From a virus, in the UHGV virus genome UHGV-0245551: DNA of 44,367 nt. The stretch is one strand, 5' to 3'. The position numbers and the translations under genes are program-made. Below the pieces are notes generated by a model, which was given only the letters and a program-made list of their open reading frames with translations, had not been told where the DNA came from and searched no databases. Position 1 is the first letter of the stretch. Each line of letters begins with the position of its first letter. Shown piece after piece: positions 2,183 through 30,849 of this stretch.

Positions 2183-2310
2183 TAGCAATCATTATATTAG
2201 TTTTACTACTATTTGGCTCTATACTTGAACAGAATGATCTAAAACATCAGTTAGAAGTGAAAGAGTATGAAATTGAAGTGTTAAGAGATAAGTTGGAGAA
2301 TGGAGGGTAA
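2170..2310 (+). CDS. small membrane peptide (46 aa; TM plus coiled coil)
   Basis: ATG 2170; MWGVIAIIILVLLLFGSIL...EYEIEVLRDKLENGG*; below the ORF-track size cutoff; overlaps end of preceding gene. Confidence 0.3.
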   Translation: MWGVIAIIILVLLLFGSILEQNDLKHQLEVKEYEIEVLRDKLENGG

Positions 2311-2312
2311 GT

Positions 2313-2729
2313 ATGATAACGATTGAACGACACGATATAAAGAAGTTAGAAGATTATATCAAGAACATAGAACGCTACAGACGAGAGTTAAAAGTAAGAG
2401 AGTATGAATTGTTAGAGAACCACGAACCCGAAAATGTAGGTGCAGGTAAAAGTAATATACCAGGTAATCCTATTGAGAAAGAATCAATCAAGAAGTTAAG
2501 TGACAATCGTTATAACAACTTACGTAACATTGTAAAGGGTGTAGATAAGCTCATTTATGAATCAGACGAAGATACACAAGACTTAATGCGTTTGAGATAC
2601 TGGGAATGTCCTATAGGTTGTAGTGAGTGGGAGGATATAGCTGACTACTTCGGAACAAGTAAGACGAGTATATTAAGACGACGTGACGCGATGATAAATA
2701 GATTGGCAGAATTCATAGGTTATGTGTAA
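2313..2729 (+). CDS. rinA: late-gene transcriptional activator, RinA/ArpU family
   Basis: 138 aa, immediately upstream of packaging module; C-terminal ...DIADYFGTSKTSILRRRDAMINRLAEFIG resembles ArpU/RinA sigma-like HTH; gene order matches staphylococcal siphoviruses. Confidence 0.6.
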   Translation: MITIERHDIKKLEDYIKNIERYRRELKVREYELLENHEPENVGAGKSNIPGNPIEKESIKKLSDNRYNNLRNIVKGVDKLIYESDEDTQDLMRLRYWECPIGCSEWEDIADYFGTSKTSILRRRDAMINRLAEFIGYV

Positions 2730-3069
2730 GGTGGACTTTTGAAGTGTGTAAGTCCGTTTATAATCGGTGTATTATGATATTGTAAGAATTACCTCACAAG
2801 ACATAGTGTTTATCCTTTCGCACTATGGTGGGGTATTCAATATCGAAGTGATTGGATAAGTGTTTATCGTCCTTGATTAGACGTTGCGCATCCGATTGCT
2901 TAACTATCCGTCAGAGTGGCGGGTAGTTTTATTGAATCTTACAAATATGAATTTTATATTCATTACCATTTTCATCAGTATCGTCTTTTATATCACCATA
3001 TATAGAAGCACAGTGATACTTCTTATGTTTAATTAGTTTGTAATATAGCTTTTTTTGTCTTTCTTGTTA

Positions 3070-3101
3070 GTTATCCGTGAGAACACACGGGTAACTTTTT
3101 T
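3070..3101 (+). terminator. rho-independent terminator-like hairpin
   Basis: GTTATCCGTG-agaaca-CACGGGTAAC (10 bp stem, one G-U) followed by TTTTTT. Confidence 0.5.
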
Positions 3102-3171
3102 ATGTATTGATGTGACATAGAGGTGTGACATGAGTACATAAACTCAAATAAATAACAAAACATAATCATTA

Positions 3172-23414: not shown

Positions 23415-23445
23415 AAAGCCGGCTTTTTAGTCGGCTTTTTATTAT
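23415..23445 (+). terminator. intrinsic terminator after tail/XhlA module
   Basis: AAAGCCG-gctttttagt-CGGCTTT followed by TTATT. Confidence 0.5.
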
Positions 23446-23465: not shown

Positions 23466-23812
23466 ATGGGATTACCTAGTCCTAAAAGAAGAAAACCTAC
23501 TGCTTCGGAAGTTGCAGCATGGGCAAAAAGGATGATTGGCAGAAGAGTTGATGTAGACGGTTATTATGGCGCCCAGTGTTGGGATTTACCAAACTACATT
23601 TTCAATAGATATTGGCATTTTAAAACAACAGGAAATGCGATTGCTATGGCATGGTATAGATATCCTAAAGGCTTCAAATTCTATAGGAACACTAGAAACT
23701 TTGTTCCGAAACCTGGTGACATGGCAGTTTGGGGAAAGGGCTCCTTTAATAACGGTGTTGGGCATACTGCTGTTGTCATAGGTCCATCTACCAAAAGTTA
23801 CTTTACAAGCGT
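23466..23812 (+). CDS. virion-associated peptidoglycan hydrolase, exon 1 (CHAP domain N-terminal part)
   Basis: CHAP catalytic Cys (GAQCWDLPNYIF) and His (GVGHTAVVIG); frame is terminated 18 nt later by intron sequence; RBS GAGGTGG upstream. Confidence 0.6.
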
Positions 23813-24742
23813 TGAATGTAATTGGATATAGTTGTATAATAGACTCAAAGAGGTGTGTTATATGGCTAAAAAAATAGATAAAGAAAGCTTGATCGGGAAG
23901 ACAAAAGGAATATATACATTGATTGAAAACGTCAGTGTTACTCATTCGATTTTTAAGTGTGAAAAATGTGGTAAAACATATAAAATGAATTTTTATTCTT
24001 GGTATCGCAGAGGTAGGCAAATTTGTAAATGTATGTATAAAAATACTCATCACAAACTGTATGGTAGATATGATAAAATGCTTTATCGTTGCTATAATTC
24101 TAATTCAGATAATTATCAATATTATGGTGGTAGGGGCATAAAGGTTTGTGAACGTTGGAAAAATAACTTCAAAAATTTTCTAGAAGATATGCAACCTACT
24201 TATTTTGAAGGTGCTGAATTAGATAGAATTGATAACGATTCAGACTACTCTCCTAGTAATTGCAGATGGGTAACACATTCACATAATATGCATAATAGAA
24301 AGAATTTCAAGAACAAAACTAATTTTCCAGGCATTAAAAAGAATAAAAACGGATATGTTGGTAGAATTCAAATTAACAAAATTAGTTATGCCACTAGACA
24401 ATATCCAACCCCCGAAGAGGCTTTCGAGAAATTACAATTACTAAAACAGCGCCTATATTCAGAAATGAATATAAGCAAACCTCTCTAATTCATGGGATCC
24501 CCTAACGTAAAGACGAGGGCAATCATGAGCGAAGCCTATAAATAGGAACGTGCAACGACTATCGAAAGCGCACTAGACACTCTTTTGAGTGTCTTTTTTA
24601 GTGCAAGCAAGTAGAGTACATTCAAGTGAATGGAAACGAGAGGCAACCTAACAGGTTGATGATATAGTCTAGTCTATATGGAAACATATAGCAGTTCATA
24701 AGAGAACGGACAATGATTAACGACCATTGTTGAATATAAACG
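23813..24742 (+). mobile_element. group I intron (about 930 nt) interrupting the tail hydrolase gene
   Basis: 5' exon ends in U (23812). The intron ends in G (24742) immediately before open exon-2 frame that lacks any start codon for 270 nt. Core motifs: GACTA (24557-24561) and GATATAGTC (24661-24669, P7-like) lie downstream of the intron ORF. Splicing gives in-frame ...TSV|DQNWIGANSYTGSP... Confidence 0.6.
23832..24488 (+). CDS. HNH homing endonuclease encoded within the intron
   Basis: 218 aa; Cys-rich zinc-finger segment CEKCGKTYK...CKC; HNH motif ELDRIDNDSDYSPSNCRWVTHSHNMHN. Confidence 0.65.
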   Translation: MYNRLKEVCYMAKKIDKESLIGKTKGIYTLIENVSVTHSIFKCEKCGKTYKMNFYSWYRRGRQICKCMYKNTHHKLYGRYDKMLYRCYNSNSDNYQYYGGRGIKVCERWKNNFKNFLEDMQPTYFEGAELDRIDNDSDYSPSNCRWVTHSHNMHNRKNFKNKTNFPGIKKNKNGYVGRIQINKISYATRQYPTPEEAFEKLQLLKQRLYSEMNISKPL

Positions 24743-26297
24743 AGATCAAAATTGGATTGGTGCAAATAGTTATACAGGCTCACCTGGTGCGAAAATTAAA
24801 CATAGTTATAACGGTATAAGTGGGTTCGTCAGACCTCCCTACCACGCAGAAACTAAGAAACCATCGAAACCAAGTAGTACACCGTCCAAACCTTCTAATG
24901 ACAACACTCCTAAAAACACAAAAGAACAAACAAAACCTATAACTAAAGAGATTACCAAAGTTTCCTATACATCATTCGCATACGATTTAGACGATGATTT
25001 GGAATATATTTATCATTACATGGTTGAAGGGCAAAAGTTGATAGGGAAGGTAAAAGGTATATATATCAAAGAGAGTACACATATGCGTTCTGTTGAAGAA
25101 TTGTATTTACAACGTAATAAATATGTGAACGAAGATGAATACCCTCATGTATATATAGACCGAGAGCGTGTATGGACGCCTAGACCTGATTCAGAAGAAG
25201 CGCCAGAACATCCAGGTTGGCTTGTTATGGAAGTTTGTGGAGGACAAACAGAGAGTAAACGCCAATTCATGCTCAATCAAATCAGAGCGTTAATCTACGG
25301 CGTTTGGTTGCTAAGTTGGAGTAAGGTAAAACTATCTGAATCATCAATCAAAGCAGACCCTAATATATGGCGTTCTATGAAAGATTTAATTAATTACGAC
25401 TTAATCAAAAACGGTATTCCTGATGAAAGTAAATATAAAGAAGTAGAAAAGAAAATTATCGGTTTATATTTGAAAAGAGATAAATTACTTACAGAAACAA
25501 TTACTACAACAACTACAAAGACAACGATAAAAATTAAACCTAAAACTTCGGTCGACAATCCTTCACAGAACGATAAGTCGACAGGCAAAACGACAAACAG
25601 AACTTCAAATAAACCTCGTGTAGTTGTAGAGAAAAGTAAATATACTTTCCAACAAGCGCTTAATGCACAAATGGCTCATGGCATGCCTCAAAAATCTTAT
25701 AGTTGGGGTTGGGGCAATGCTTCTAGGTCACAAACAAGTAAGTATATGAATCCTAACACTATATGGAATAGTTCAACTCAACGCTATCAAATGCTAGATT
25801 TAGGAAAATATCAAGGTATATCAGTAAGTAAGTTGAATAAGATACTTAAAGGTAAAGGCACTTTATCTGGACAAGGTAAAGCTTTTGCAGACGGTTGTAA
25901 GAAGTACAATGTAAATGAAATTTACTTAATCGCTCACGCTTTCTTAGAGAGTGGATATGGCCGTAGTAACTTTGCTAGTGGACGTTATGGTATCTACAAC
26001 TACTTTGGTATTGCAGCTTACGACAACAACCCTAACGCTTCTATAGCATACGCTAGACGTCAAGGGTGGACGAGTCCACGTAATGGTATTATAGGTGGCG
26101 CTAAGTTCGTTAGAAAACAATTCTTCAACAAAGGTAAAAACACATTATACAGAATGCGTTGGAACCCTAAAAACCCTGGACATATGCAATACGCTACTGC
26201 GATTGAATGGTGTAACTTCCAAGCTACAACTATTAGTAGCTTATACAAAAAAGTAGGTGCAAAAGGTATGTACTACATTAGAGATAAATATAGATAA
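24743..26297 (+). CDS. virion-associated peptidoglycan hydrolase, exon 2 (CHAP C-terminal part, linker, GH73 glucosaminidase domain)
   Basis: Frame open from 24726 with no start codon until 24999; PSKPSSTPSKPS linker; YNVNEIYLIAHAFLESGYGRSNFA glucosaminidase motif. Confidence 0.6.
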
Positions 26298-27746: not shown

Positions 27747-29471
27747 ATGGCAGAAAAATGGAATGGAGTACCAGTGCGTTACGATTTGTTGCCTATTGGA
27801 ACACGTCGTAGTGGAGAAGCATTACACACTAAAAATGGAAAGCCTAGTTTTGCAGTTATTCATGATACTGGGAATCCAAATACTACTGCACAAGATAATG
27901 TGAATTATTATAAAAATACTTATAATATCGCTTGGAGTATGGTAGCGAGCGCTCATATTTTTGTTGATGACAAAGAAGCAATTATATGTATTCCAGTTAC
28001 AGAGGTAGCATGGCATGTTATGTTGAATACTACTATAGATAATCAGTGGTATAATGCTGATGCTGACTATGCGGCATTTGGTGTAGAAGCATGTTACTTC
28101 ACAGATAAGAAACGTAGTTTAAAGTCGTTAGATAACGCAGCGCGTATCATGGCTTATCTTACTAAATTTTGGAAGATTAACTATAAAAATGAAATGCCAG
28201 GTCATCAAGACATACAGTATGACAAGCAAGATCCTGGAAACTTATTAGAAGCTTGTGGCTTAGGTCGTAATACGAGTATCTTTGATGGGTATGTAGCTAA
28301 ATATATTGACGTCGTTAAAGTTCCCAAAGTTAGCAAGAAGAAAGCCGGAAACAAAGGTAAAAACAAAGAAAAACCTAAATCTAAACCAACAACTAAAGAT
28401 TACCAAAGTGCAATCAATTATATGTATAGCCTGAAAGGTAAGTTTGTTGACTTTGATAATCGTTGGGCATATCAGTGTATGGACTTAGCAGTTGATTACG
28501 TATATCACATAACTAATGGCAAAGTTAGAATGTGGGGTAATGCGAAAGACAGTATCCTCAACATATTCCCTAAAGGTTGGAAGATTGTTAAAAATACATC
28601 AGATTATATACCTCCAGTTGGAGCAATTGGTGTATGTACGTATGGTATATATCAAAGATACGGTCACATCTATTTAGTTTGGGATAATAGTGGAGGAACT
28701 AACACACAAACTGTATTAGAACAAAACTTTGATGGTAACGCAGATACACCTGCAAAACTACGTGTAGATAATTTTTATGGAACAACACATTACATCGTGC
28801 CATCGTTTGTTGACGAAGACTATGACGTTAATAAAATTAAAACAGTCACGACACGTAAGGCTACAAATAAATATAATGGTAAACGAGTACCTAAAAACCT
28901 AGTATGGAGTAAAACGCCGCATTACATTGCAAAAGCAGACAGTGCAGGTGTCACTATCTGCAAAGATGTTAAAAACGGATATATGAAGAAAACTAATCTG
29001 GTATACAAAGCAGGTTATAGTCCGTTTTACGTATATGAAGTACGTGAAGGTTGGGCGCGTGTTTATTCTGAAAGTAGTAATTACTGGGTATGGCATGAGC
29101 GTTTGATCATCACTAAAGAATATAAACACAATGAAACAAGAGATGGTAAAAAAGCTAGTAAGCAAACAAAAGAAATGAAGAAAATAGCAAAAAAATCTAA
29201 AAACAAGCTTTCTATAGGTCAAATACCACCTAAAAGATTAAGTTGGCAACGTAAAAAGTACTTTGCAGCACGTGCAGATAGCTTTGGTGCAACGATACTT
29301 AACAGACATGGTGGTAAAGGTAATTACTCATGGAATATGACTAATACAACATATGGTAAAGGTCAATTATTCTATGTTTACGAGATTATCGACGGTTGGT
29401 GTCGTGTACACGGTCCTAGTGATAACTACTGGGTATGGCACGAAAGACTTAGAATTACAAAAGTATATTAA
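27747..29471 (+). CDS. endolysin: N-terminal Amidase_2 (PlyL-like), central CHAP, two C-terminal SH3b-like repeats
   Basis: FAVIHDTGNP...AHIFVDDKEAIICIP...AWHV (Amidase_2 pattern); WAYQCMDLAVDY...RYGHIYLV (CHAP Cys/His); tandem repeats ending YWVWHERLIITKEY / YWVWHERLRITKVY; RBS AGGAGG. Confidence 0.8.
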   Translation: MAEKWNGVPVRYDLLPIGTRRSGEALHTKNGKPSFAVIHDTGNPNTTAQDNVNYYKNTYNIAWSMVASAHIFVDDKEAIICIPVTEVAWHVMLNTTIDNQWYNADADYAAFGVEACYFTDKKRSLKSLDNAARIMAYLTKFWKINYKNEMPGHQDIQYDKQDPGNLLEACGLGRNTSIFDGYVAKYIDVVKVPKVSKKKAGNKGKNKEKPKSKPTTKDYQSAINYMYSLKGKFVDFDNRWAYQCMDLAVDYVYHITNGKVRMWGNAKDSILNIFPKGWKIVKNTSDYIPPVGAIGVCTYGIYQRYGHIYLVWDNSGGTNTQTVLEQNFDGNADTPAKLRVDNFYGTTHYIVPSFVDEDYDVNKIKTVTTRKATNKYNGKRVPKNLVWSKTPHYIAKADSAGVTICKDVKNGYMKKTNLVYKAGYSPFYVYEVREGWARVYSESSNYWVWHERLIITKEYKHNETRDGKKASKQTKEMKKIAKKSKNKLSIGQIPPKRLSWQRKKYFAARADSFGATILNRHGGKGNYSWNMTNTTYGKGQLFYVYEIIDGWCRVHGPSDNYWVWHERLRITKVY

Positions 29472-29830
29472 ATTATGTGGTATAATGCAGGTACCACGTC
29501 ATTATACAAGGGGAGTCGCTATGACTACCCTATTTTTTATTGTATAATATTCTTTGTTCCTGATTTCAAACTAATACTATATTCTAAACCGCGTTCTTTA
29601 TGAGCGTGGTTTTTTGTGTACACGTGTCAAATACGTGTCAAAATAGTTATAATCTTTTAGTTCTATTTAGAAAATAAATCTTTTAAAACACTGTACTTAT
29701 GGCTATTTAGTTTTATTTAGAAATTTATTTTTATCCCTCCGTTTCCGTACTATACCGTTGATATGACGGGATTTCGAGAGAGTAAGTGTCAAATAAGTGT
29801 CAAGAGAATATTTCTCTGACACGTTGACCT
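29472..29830. other. attP-like region between lysis genes and integrase, with arm-type repeats
   Basis: ACGTGTCAAATA / ACGTGTCAAAATA at 29622-29645; AAGTGTCAAATA / AAGTGTCAAGAG at 29784-29806; inverted CGTGTCAGA at 29815-29823; about 25 nt direct repeat TTTAGTTyTATTTAGAAA at 29655-29684 and 29706-29733. Confidence 0.45.
29586..29615 (+). terminator. intrinsic terminator after endolysin
   Basis: AAACCGCGTTC-tttat-GAGCGTGGTTT (11 bp stem with two G-U) followed by TTTTGTG. Confidence 0.6.
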
Positions 29831-30849
29831 TGCTCTTTTTTATGTTCTTCTAATAAATGTGAATACGTGTCTAGCGTTTGTGATATAGTAGCGTGACCTA
29901 AACGTTTACTTATATACTCGATTGGTATGCCTTTAGATAGTAAGTAAGATGTGTGCGTATGTCTGAGTGAATAGGGAGTTATATTATTATCGTTTAATCC
30001 TATCACTTCTTTTGCTTTTCTAAATGCTTTACTTACTGATGTATGACTAACCGAGAATAGCTTGCCATCAATTCTACGCGGCATTTTAGCTAATTTTGAA
30101 TTTATGTGCATGATATCTTTTGAATTAACTTCTACATCACGTTTTGAATTCTTTGTTTTCGTTCCAGGCAAATGAATTATGCCATTCGCTTTGTTTAGAT
30201 CTTTGTAAGTCATATTGATGACATCGCTATATCTTGCGCCAGTAATGCCTAATAGATATAGCAAAACATAACTTTCTTCATCTCTTTTCTTGAAATAATC
30301 TAGCAAGTTTAAATAGTCTTTTATTGTAATAAACTTAAATTTCTCATCTTTAGCTTTTTCAGTCCCTTTGATATTTACATTATAAGTAGGGTCTTTCTTC
30401 AAATAGCCATCGTATAACGCGTCTCTAATACATCTAGCAAGACAACCGTGAACTTTTCTTACTGTTTCATCAGTGTGACCTTGTGCGTATTGATTTAAAA
30501 ACTTTTGATACTCACTACGTGTGATATTTTTAACTAACATATTTTCTCCGAAATACTCACTGAATAATTTAATCGATCTTTCATACCAGTAGAATTGTTT
30601 GCTAGATAACTGTTTCTTGTTCTTAATTTTTATCCAGTCATCGTAGTAGTCAATGAATTTTTTATTATCTTCAATGTTGTTGCCATCTTCTAAATCTCTA
30701 ATAAATTGTTGTGCTGCGTTTGTAGCCTCAGCTTTTGTTTTAAATCCAGATTTACGTTTTTTGCCAGATTTCAAACTAGGGTGTTTAACATCATATTGCC
30801 ATGATGAGCTTTTCTTATTTTTGCGTTTGGTTACTGTAAATGTTGCCAT
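29800..30849 (-). CDS. int: tyrosine integrase with N-terminal arm-binding (AP2-like) domain
   Basis: 349 aa; N-terminal KRKNKKSSSWQYDVKHP...GFKTKAEA arm-binding-like; C-terminal catalytic R...HxxR...Y (LRHTHTSYLLSKG...LGHATISQTLDTYSHL). Confidence 0.85.
   Translation of the reverse strand: MATFTVTKRKNKKSSSWQYDVKHPSLKSGKKRKSGFKTKAEATNAAQQFIRDLEDGNNIEDNKKFIDYYDDWIKIKNKKQLSSKQFYWYERSIKLFSEYFGENMLVKNITRSEYQKFLNQYAQGHTDETVRKVHGCLARCIRDALYDGYLKKDPTYNVNIKGTEKAKDEKFKFITIKDYLNLLDYFKKRDEESYVLLYLLGITGARYSDVINMTYKDLNKANGIIHLPGTKTKNSKRDVEVNSKDIMHINSKLAKMPRRIDGKLFSVSHTSVSKAFRKAKEVIGLNDNNITPYSLRHTHTSYLLSKGIPIEYISKRLGHATISQTLDTYSHLLEEHKKEQGQRVREIFS

Follow-up and report, generated by a model that had tools for sequence, protein, structure and literature searches.

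The closest described relatives of the element reported here lie in the tail hydrolase gene of Staphylococcus epidermidis phages. In phage PH15, the gene ph24, annotated as a joined coding sequence, is interrupted between the codons for Cys38 and Trp39 (QC/WD) by a group I intron of 246 nucleotides (nt) that contains no open reading frame (ORF); the same intron occurs in E72, BE21, and phiIPLA5. A passage of PMC7235722 that cites Daniel et al. 2007 reports both introns of PH15, of which one is in this gene, to be spliced in vivo. The virus genome UHGV-0245551 (44,367 nt; "the window" is this whole stretch as analysed) shares the host gene, the phage genus, and the RNA family with these phages. 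While its QC/WD site is empty, an ORF-containing intron of 930 nt is found 233 nt further on, at Val116/Asp117. We consider it very likely that positions 23813-24742 are a mobile group I intron that splits a single tail-associated peptidoglycan hydrolase gene, here called hyd. This reading draws on the insertion and its boundaries, a conserved and covarying ribozyme fold, intact exons, and polymorphism both in the presence of the intron and in the decay of its ORF.

Further intron sites are known in the same gene. The QC/WD intron, 246 nt and ORF-less, is carried by PH15, BE21, E72, phiIPLA5, and StB12; the BE21 copy, inserted at the PH15 point, scores 93.8 bits against Rfam, and a non-coding intron has been predicted within E72's hyd gene. 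Two codons upstream, at GA/QC, BE28 and PG-2021_93 carry an intron of about 1 kb with a different HNH gene, whose ribozyme is split by the ORF and stays below the Rfam threshold (39 and 21 bits, respectively). Both sites are empty in the window at 23577-23582. In phage StB12 of S. hominis, the tail hydrolase (gp64/gp65/gp66) has, besides the QC/WD intron, a second interruption at the codon position used in the window (..TSV/DQNW). Its ribozyme has the same architecture and is 88% identical to the core in the window, but the copy is ORF-less and 309 nt long, with a P1 loop of 10 nt and a guide adapted to CCGU. The StB12 record annotates three separate proteins and no intron.

Outside the tail gene, the S. 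warneri phages IME1367_01 and CF5 contain group I introns with an HNH ORF in the CHAP domain of their endolysin, the ORF lying upstream of the core as in the window (ribozyme 71-73% identical in nucleotides, ORF 51-53% in amino acids). Their insertion point in CHAP is the homologous one, just ahead of the catalytic acid (..TVL/EQNW), but the host gene is an endolysin and not a tail hydrolase, and the exon and guide sequences differ from those of the window. These endolysin introns span about 2195-3150 in IME1367_01 (L005) and about 1783-2700 in CF5 (L007), and the CF5 gene has a second group I intron further downstream. The introns of SPO1 (I-HmuI), Twort (orf142), and phage K (lysK/I-KsaI) likewise combine a self-splicing intron and a modular nuclease within a conserved phage gene, and Twort and K-like introns match the core of the window at 72-85% over about 130-290 nt. 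I-HmuI has a catalytic His where the ORF of the window has Arg, and the latter protein has an AP2 domain for DNA binding. The lysK intron of phage K was considered as a further occupant of the same CHAP position and ruled out, as it lies between the CHAP and amidase domains and not at the catalytic acid (bioRxiv 10.64898/2026.06.13.732091).

The insertion was delimited against intron-free alleles. More than 20 sister phages (for example phiIPLA7, CNPH82, IME1348_01, and vB_SepS_48) carry an uninterrupted gene of 1902 nt that is annotated as a tail-associated cell-wall hydrolase. Compared with the phiIPLA7 gene (97.6% nucleotide identity), the window has one extra block of exactly 930 nt, which falls in phase inside one codon of an otherwise continuous gene. 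The features of the locus are as follows:

23466-23812, plus strand: hyd exon 1, CHAP residues 1-115 and the first two bases of the Val116 codon; carries Cys38 and His101
23813-24742, plus strand: group I intron of 930 nt; exact insertion relative to intronless alleles, Rfam RF00028, same insertion in other staphylococcal prophages
23829-23831, plus strand: in-frame TAG that ends exon 1 translation in unspliced RNA (product ...SVECNWI-stop, 121 amino acids, aa)
23812-23840, plus strand: promoter-like site TTGAAT-17 nt-TATAAT before the intron ORF, starting at the last exon base; 10 of 12 sigma-70-type consensus positions
23862-24488, plus strand: intron ORF of 208 aa with ATG start; zinc ribbon, HNH-like core, and C-terminal AP2-type DNA-binding domain
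24743-26297, plus strand: hyd exon 2, third base of Val116, then Asp117-Gln-Asn119-Trp; 97% nucleotide identity to phiIPLA7

A preliminary description of the window, made from the letters alone, had proposed that the CHAP frame is stopped by a TAG 18 nt after ...KSYFTSV. The frame reading bears this out: the frame runs from ATG 23466 to the TAG at 23829-23831, 18 nt past the Val codon at 23811-23813. The downstream glucosaminidase frame had been described as start-less and open from 24726. It is indeed start-less, its first ATG, GTG, or TTG being TTG 24999, but it opens at 24717, after a TGA at 24714-16. The 282 nt from 24717 to 24998 thus contain no start codon, and the 85 codons of exon 2 in this stretch are 100% conserved with the uninterrupted gene.

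The T at 23812 and the G at 24742 that had been named as the canonical exon and intron ends are both present. Only one placement of the 930-nt block has a U before the 5' splice site as well as a terminal G (omega-G), namely U23812/U23813 with G24742/A24743, which makes U23813 the first and G24742 the last base of the intron. Two other pairs were rejected: with G24744 as the terminal G, 5' cleavage would fall after G23814 and leave no U at -1, while 23813/24743 would give an intron that terminates in A. Joining 23466-23812 to 24743-26297 yields 1902 nt in frame and 633 aa, with Val116 rebuilt at the predicted ...TSV/DQNW... joint. The ligated junction reads ...TTTACAAGCGT/AGATCAAAATTGG..., and the peptide spanning it reads ...SYFTSVDQNWIGANSYTGSPGAK.... 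From end to end and free of gaps, 623 of the 633 residues (98%) are identical to phiIPLA7 gp22, the one continuous match to intronless homologues that had been expected. The opposite case, in which intronless homologues have a CHAP domain that ends at this point and a downstream gene with its own start, was not seen in those homologues.

Pfam places CHAP at residues 31-119 and Glucosaminidase at residues 495-615 of the spliced protein; within exon 2, a linker rich in Pro, Ser, Thr, and Lys is followed by a middle region and the C-terminal glucosaminidase domain. In an alignment with the CHAP domain of LysK, C38 corresponds to C54, H101 to H117, D117 to E134, and N119 to N136. The crystal structure of LysK has the catalytic triad Cys54-His117-Glu134 and Asn136 in the oxyanion hole (PMC4126393). 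Since D117 aligns with Glu134 of LysK, the intron splits the codon that immediately precedes the catalytic acid, and exon 1 by itself is without that residue. CHAP and glucosaminidase with a Cys-His-acid triad come together in one polypeptide solely once the intron is removed. The annotation of the relatives as "tail associated cell-wall hydrolase" and the position of the gene among tail and baseplate genes point to a location of the hyd product in the virion.

The exon bases next to the intron differ slightly from the intron-free allele. The first 341 nt of exon 1 are 100% identical to phiIPLA7 gp22, and three synonymous differences flank the insertion at -6, -3, and +1, changing ACT AGT GTG to ACA AGC GT/A. 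The intron-free relatives examined read AC(T/C) AGT GTG at this point, and the phiIPLA7-type target sequence is ...TACTTTACTAGTGTGGATCAAAATTGGATTGG.... The change at -3 converts one G-U pair of the intron helix P1 to G-C.

A ribozyme is present within the inserted block. The scan of the whole window with Rfam returned a single match above threshold, RF00028 (Intron_gpI) at 24430-24691, at 95.2 bits (gathering score 50) and E=2e-23, with the model covered in full length (1-253). The covariance-model check proposed in the preliminary description therefore gave a strong match. The match to the consensus takes in GACUA and GAUAUAGUC (P7 and J8/7). GACTA (24557) and GATATAGTC (24661), which had been recognised as resembling a group I core, are both present and are the two strands of P7. 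Helices were mapped in window coordinates with the ORF-less StB12 copy as a guide; "compensated" in the following lines refers to paired changes among eight same-site intron copies from four staphylococcal phage lineages:

23809-23814, plus strand: P1 5' strand GCGU/UG; six pairs with 24447-24452, with the wobble U23812-G24449 at the 5' splice site
24447-24452, plus strand: internal guide sequence CAGCGC, the P1 3' strand
24454-24473, plus strand: P2 hairpin with GAAA loop; six inner pairs invariant, two outer pairs broken in some lineages
24480-24669, plus strand: catalytic core; all helices 100% paired in the eight sequences
24480-85/24638-43, plus strand: P3, three compensated pairs
24490-95/24523-28, plus strand: P4, compensated change
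24500-03/24516-19, plus strand: P5, compensated change
24506-07/24514-15, plus strand: P5a
24529-31/24551-53, plus strand: P6
24535-38/24543-46, plus strand: P6a, compensated change
24557-61/24665-69, plus strand: P7, invariant in the eight copies and hence uninformative for covariation
24568-24608, plus strand: P7.1, compensated change
24619-24632, plus strand: P7.2
24644-24658, plus strand: P8
24674-24742, plus strand: 3' domain with P9, P9.1, P9.2, the tail GAAUAUAAAC, and the terminal G 24742
24674-80/24685-91, plus strand: P9 with GAAA loop, compensated pairs
24694-97/24704-07, plus strand: P9.1, compensated pairs
24709-15/24725-31, plus strand: P9.2, compensated pairs

When the model from P1 to P9.2, including the P7 pseudoknot, was counted on these eight copies, 98.7% of cells had standard pairs and 14 pairs were changed on both sides. 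None of 500 shuffles was as good, and sliding the 3' partners left 32-44% paired. The splice sites proposed in the preliminary description are supported by P1, as this helix shows a compensatory change in the StB12 copy: at -4, the exon GCGU faces the guide GCGC in the window, and the exon CCGU faces the guide GCGG in StB12. Similarity to other staphylococcal phage introns starts at 24448-24451, within the guide, and the 3' end ...AACG before the splice site is conserved in all same-site copies. An alternative guide, GUGUU at about 23853-23857, overlaps the ribosome-binding site of the ORF and was rejected, as it forms five pairs of which three are wobbles and is not homologous to the StB12 guide.

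The hairpins P7.1 and P7.2 sit between GACUA (P7) and GAGAGG (P3') and are conserved with compensated pairs. Such helices between P7 and P3' are the mark of the phage-typical subgroup IA, and the intron appears to be of this phage type with its extra P7.1 and P7.2 helices. Within P7.1, the hairpin at 24575-24599 (AGACACUC-UUUU-GAGUGUCU, then UUUUU) scores like an intrinsic terminator inside the ribozyme, and hairpin and U run are conserved in all same-site copies. This site might end transcripts begun at the promoter of the ORF.

The same intron, in the same codon, occurs in prophages of S. pasteuri, S. pettenkoferi, and S. chromogenes (names as in the source records) and in phage StB12 of S. 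hominis. Homologues of the ORF with 64-97% identity were found in the same arrangement in the prophages from the first three species. The 121-aa unspliced exon 1 product appeared in 42 blocks of a public assembly collection, always in the order CHAP, 208-aa ORF, and glucosaminidase, and the guide-P2 pattern appeared in 13 IMG/VR contigs. Compared with the S. pasteuri copy, the intron shows 96% identity against 74-81% for the exons; compared with the S. pettenkoferi type, identity reaches 92% in the ribozyme core and 58-66% in the exons. Same-site copies in viral contigs comprise full-ORF forms, one of 934 nt whose ORF is broken and has a longest frame of 97 aa, one of 516 nt with an internal deletion, and two of 318 nt that lack the ORF. 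An intron more conserved than its host exons, combined with presence/absence and ORF decay, is the pattern that would be expected of a homing element that invades, decays, and is lost.

The intron ORF starts in the P1 loop, and its 3' end passes through the guide sequence and P2 into P3. It had been described as running from 23832 to 24488 with a zinc finger and an HNH motif. A zinc ribbon is present (C33, C36, C55, and C57), while ATG 23862 is the more likely start than TTG 23832, because the ribosome-binding site GAGGTG lies ahead of it at 23850-23855 and the gene calls in public contigs agree (208 aa). Exact look-ups of the product started at GTG 23853 or TTG 23832 returned no match. The HNH motif was recovered only partly: the HNH-like core reads LDRIDN...NCRW...N, with Arg at the place of the canonical His. 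The protein matches PHROGs family 374, labelled "HNH endonuclease", with E=2e-56. Compared with solved structures, a profile of 26 homologues matched AP2 domains (E=0.017) and the HNH enzyme I-HmuI (E=0.037). I-HmuI is the only solved nuclease matched by the ORF sequence, in a weak alignment (E=0.037-0.3), and PacI is the best nuclease match by fold. Across the 26 homologues, 21 columns are invariant; D121, N133, N145, and the zinc-ribbon cysteines C33 and C36 are invariant in the family. The family also has an invariant YGGRGIxVCxRW motif upstream of the invariant Asp-Arg that takes the place of Asp-His in HNH enzymes (window 24223-24300, residues 121-145), and its members number more than 4,000 in a protein search.

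Under the mechanism proposed for this locus, hyd would be transcribed as one RNA. The GCGU at the 5' exon end would pair with the guide at 24449-24452, 640 nt downstream, and form P1, after which a free guanosine bound in P7 would attack after U23812. The terminal G24742 would then enter the guanosine site and the exons would be ligated, rebuilding the codon GU/A (Val116) directly before Asp117-Gln-Asn-Trp of the CHAP domain and giving one protein of 633 aa with CHAP and glucosaminidase. The gene in the P1 loop, with its own promoter-like site and ribosome-binding site, would express the 208-aa protein. When two phages or prophages meet, this product would most likely nick or cut intron-free hyd around ...AGTGTG/GATCAAAATTGG..., and repair of the cut allele would copy the intron in (homing). 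The intron is seen as probably self-splicing, and both the endonuclease activity and the cleavage site are predicted. A strong terminator-like hairpin is located at 23415-23445 (AAAGCCGGCU-UUUU-AGUCGGCUUU, then a T run), 20 nt upstream of the hyd start; transcripts of hyd may therefore begin at its own start or arise by read-through.

Several results weigh against the reading as a mobile, self-splicing intron, and some of them concern the ORF. No model of Pfam or NCBIfam was found for it, even at E up to 10, and a Foldseek search of the PDB with it returned nothing significant. In the alignment of LDRID with VVDHKD of I-HmuI, the general-base His is replaced by Arg122, which is invariant in the 26 homologues, and a review calls this His "absolutely conserved" in HNH enzymes (PMC3943268). 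Because Arg replaces the His, no Pfam or NCBIfam model applies, and no Foldseek match is significant, the nuclease activity is uncertain; the protein is best described as HNH-like with an AP2 DNA-binding domain. An intron that splices while its ORF is not, or never was, a DNA endonuclease is an alternative that fits these results. The intron would then be inherited vertically or spread by ordinary phage recombination, and the protein would be inert or act otherwise, in DNA binding or RNA folding. The persistence of ORF-less and decayed copies at the same site also agrees with it. We nevertheless regard it as unlikely, given that several staphylococcal lineages retain the 208-aa frame with 64-97% identity and with Asp121, Asn133, Asn145, C33, and C36 invariant, that the ORF is equipped with its own promoter-like site and ribosome-binding site, and that between species the intron is clearly more similar than the surrounding exons. 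In addition, PacI is an HNH enzyme with Tyr in place of this His, so that a protein lacking the His may still be active.

The remaining adverse points concern splicing and distribution. P10, the pairing of the guide with the 3' exon, is all but missing on inspection of the sequence: AAAACA 5' of G24449 faces AGAUCA with at most one or two isolated pairs. P10 is dispensable in many group I introns, and its absence is no bar to membership. P1 has to close across a loop of 632 nt. On these grounds the intron could be a decayed, non-splicing relic and hyd split or dead in this prophage, all the more as tail hydrolases of this kind are not always essential. Such a relic is very improbable: all core helices are intact and lineage differences are compensated, P7 and J8/7 match the Rfam consensus, both exons are intact and encode a protein 98% identical to a functional-looking relative, and the same allele recurs in the 42 assembly blocks. 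Finally, a scan for the guide-P2 pattern in one representative genome per species found no copy, and the element is therefore confined to particular prophages. That there is no intron at all, and that a small CHAP protein, a free-standing HNH gene, and a glucosaminidase protein from an internal start are three genes, as the automatic annotation of StB12, BE28, and public contigs calls them, is hardly credible against the 95-bit ribozyme match with helix covariation, the exactly 930-nt, in-phase insertion within a codon of an otherwise continuous gene, the 282 start-less nt of exon 2 with their 85 fully conserved codons, and a CHAP catalytic acid that would be parted from its Cys and His.

The window, which looks like a complete genome, belongs to a temperate S. 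epidermidis siphovirus of the genus Rockefellervirus, with 94-95% identity to the phages BE01, IME1348_01, E72, phiIPLA5, and phiIPLA7 across most of its length. A tyrosine-recombinase integrase gene is located at 29800-30849 on the minus strand. The endolysin gene of the window (27747-29471, 574 aa) is uninterrupted and encodes an amidase, a CHAP domain (..TVLEQNF..), and two repeats of a conserved C-terminal segment. With at most one mismatch allowed, GTNGAYCARAAYTGG had no other match in the window.

The start of the intron has further sequence features. The promoter-like site at 23812-23840 shares the top score among 12 sites, and the number of such sites is no higher than in shuffled sequence. 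Its TATAAT recurs at the same position in the copies of S. pettenkoferi type and of S. chromogenes and in the endolysin intron of IME1367_01, and the site may be used as the promoter of the intron ORF. Pairing with the P2 5' strand at 24454-24461 is possible for each of three copies of UGAAU(R)UAA, located at the intron start (23813-23821), in the P2 3' strand (24466-24473), and in the tail (24730-24739, 4 nt before the terminal G). Across lineages, the outer local P2 pairs do not hold, whereas pairing to the intron start and to the 3' tail persists, with one compensated pair in each, on weak statistics; RNAalifold favoured the pairing of the P2 5' strand with the 3' tail. The three copies may serve as a conformational switch, or may be what a duplication has left behind.

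Over its first 14 nt, the intron also looks like the beginning of exon 2 (23813-23831 compared with 24743-24760), with AAUUGGAU and AATTGGAT at the same offset, and the unspliced frame reads ...SV-ECNWI-stop against ...SV-DQNWIG in the spliced one. That unspliced RNA gives a working 121-aa CHAP protein in which E-C-N-W mimics D-Q-N-W was considered and judged unlikely, as AAUUGG is kept in the frame-broken copy L030 (GAA TGA) and the S. chromogenes copies read E-stop. The mimicry nucleotides are kept in S. pettenkoferi-type copies, and in L030 despite its broken frame; with the nucleotides kept where the frame is not, any function would therefore lie at the DNA or RNA level and not in the protein. 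In a bolder proposal, which we hold to be quite unlikely, the intron would begin with a conserved control segment of about 30 nt (UGAAUGUAAUUGGAUAUAG...) that serves several purposes beyond that of a P1 loop. It would contain the -35 box of the ORF promoter, one of the three UGAAU(R)UAA copies, and the exon 2 mimic, which could let the enzyme still bind its own intron-containing allele, as I-HmuI reportedly does. Together these would form a switch coupling exon 1 translation, endonuclease expression, and splice-site choice in an intron with a P1 that has to close over 632 nt.

The element is of an ordinary and well-understood kind, its gene is already a known intron host, and the site is present but unannotated in public records. 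No intron at this tail-hydrolase position was found described in the searchable literature. The view of the preliminary description that the placement is worth documenting is fair, but the novelty is modest, as introns in the same gene have already been reported for PH15 at another site. For annotation, StB12, BE28, and many assembled prophages are given three unrelated genes at this locus in public records and by gene callers: a "CHAP protein" of 121 aa, a "hypothetical protein", and a "glucosaminidase" that is truncated. Recognising the intron restores a single virion hydrolase of 633 aa, a member of an enzyme class under development as anti-staphylococcal agents. No curated model exists for the large family of ORFs with Arg where the HNH histidine would stand; no biochemically tested member of it was found, and it merits biochemical attention.

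For the biology of these phages, the series from a complete ORF through frameshifted and internally deleted forms to ORF-less copies offers a compact natural example of the gain, decay, and loss cycle of a homing endonuclease gene. In staphylococcal siphoviruses, introns occupy three sites of hyd: GA/QC and QC/WD are at the catalytic Cys codon or no more than two codons away from it, and SV/DQ is at the codon of the catalytic acid. With the homologous CHAP position of endolysins also occupied, this distribution fits homing elements that settle at codons the host cannot change. Since related introns occupy this homologous position in endolysin genes, it further suggests that introns may have moved between paralogous domains.

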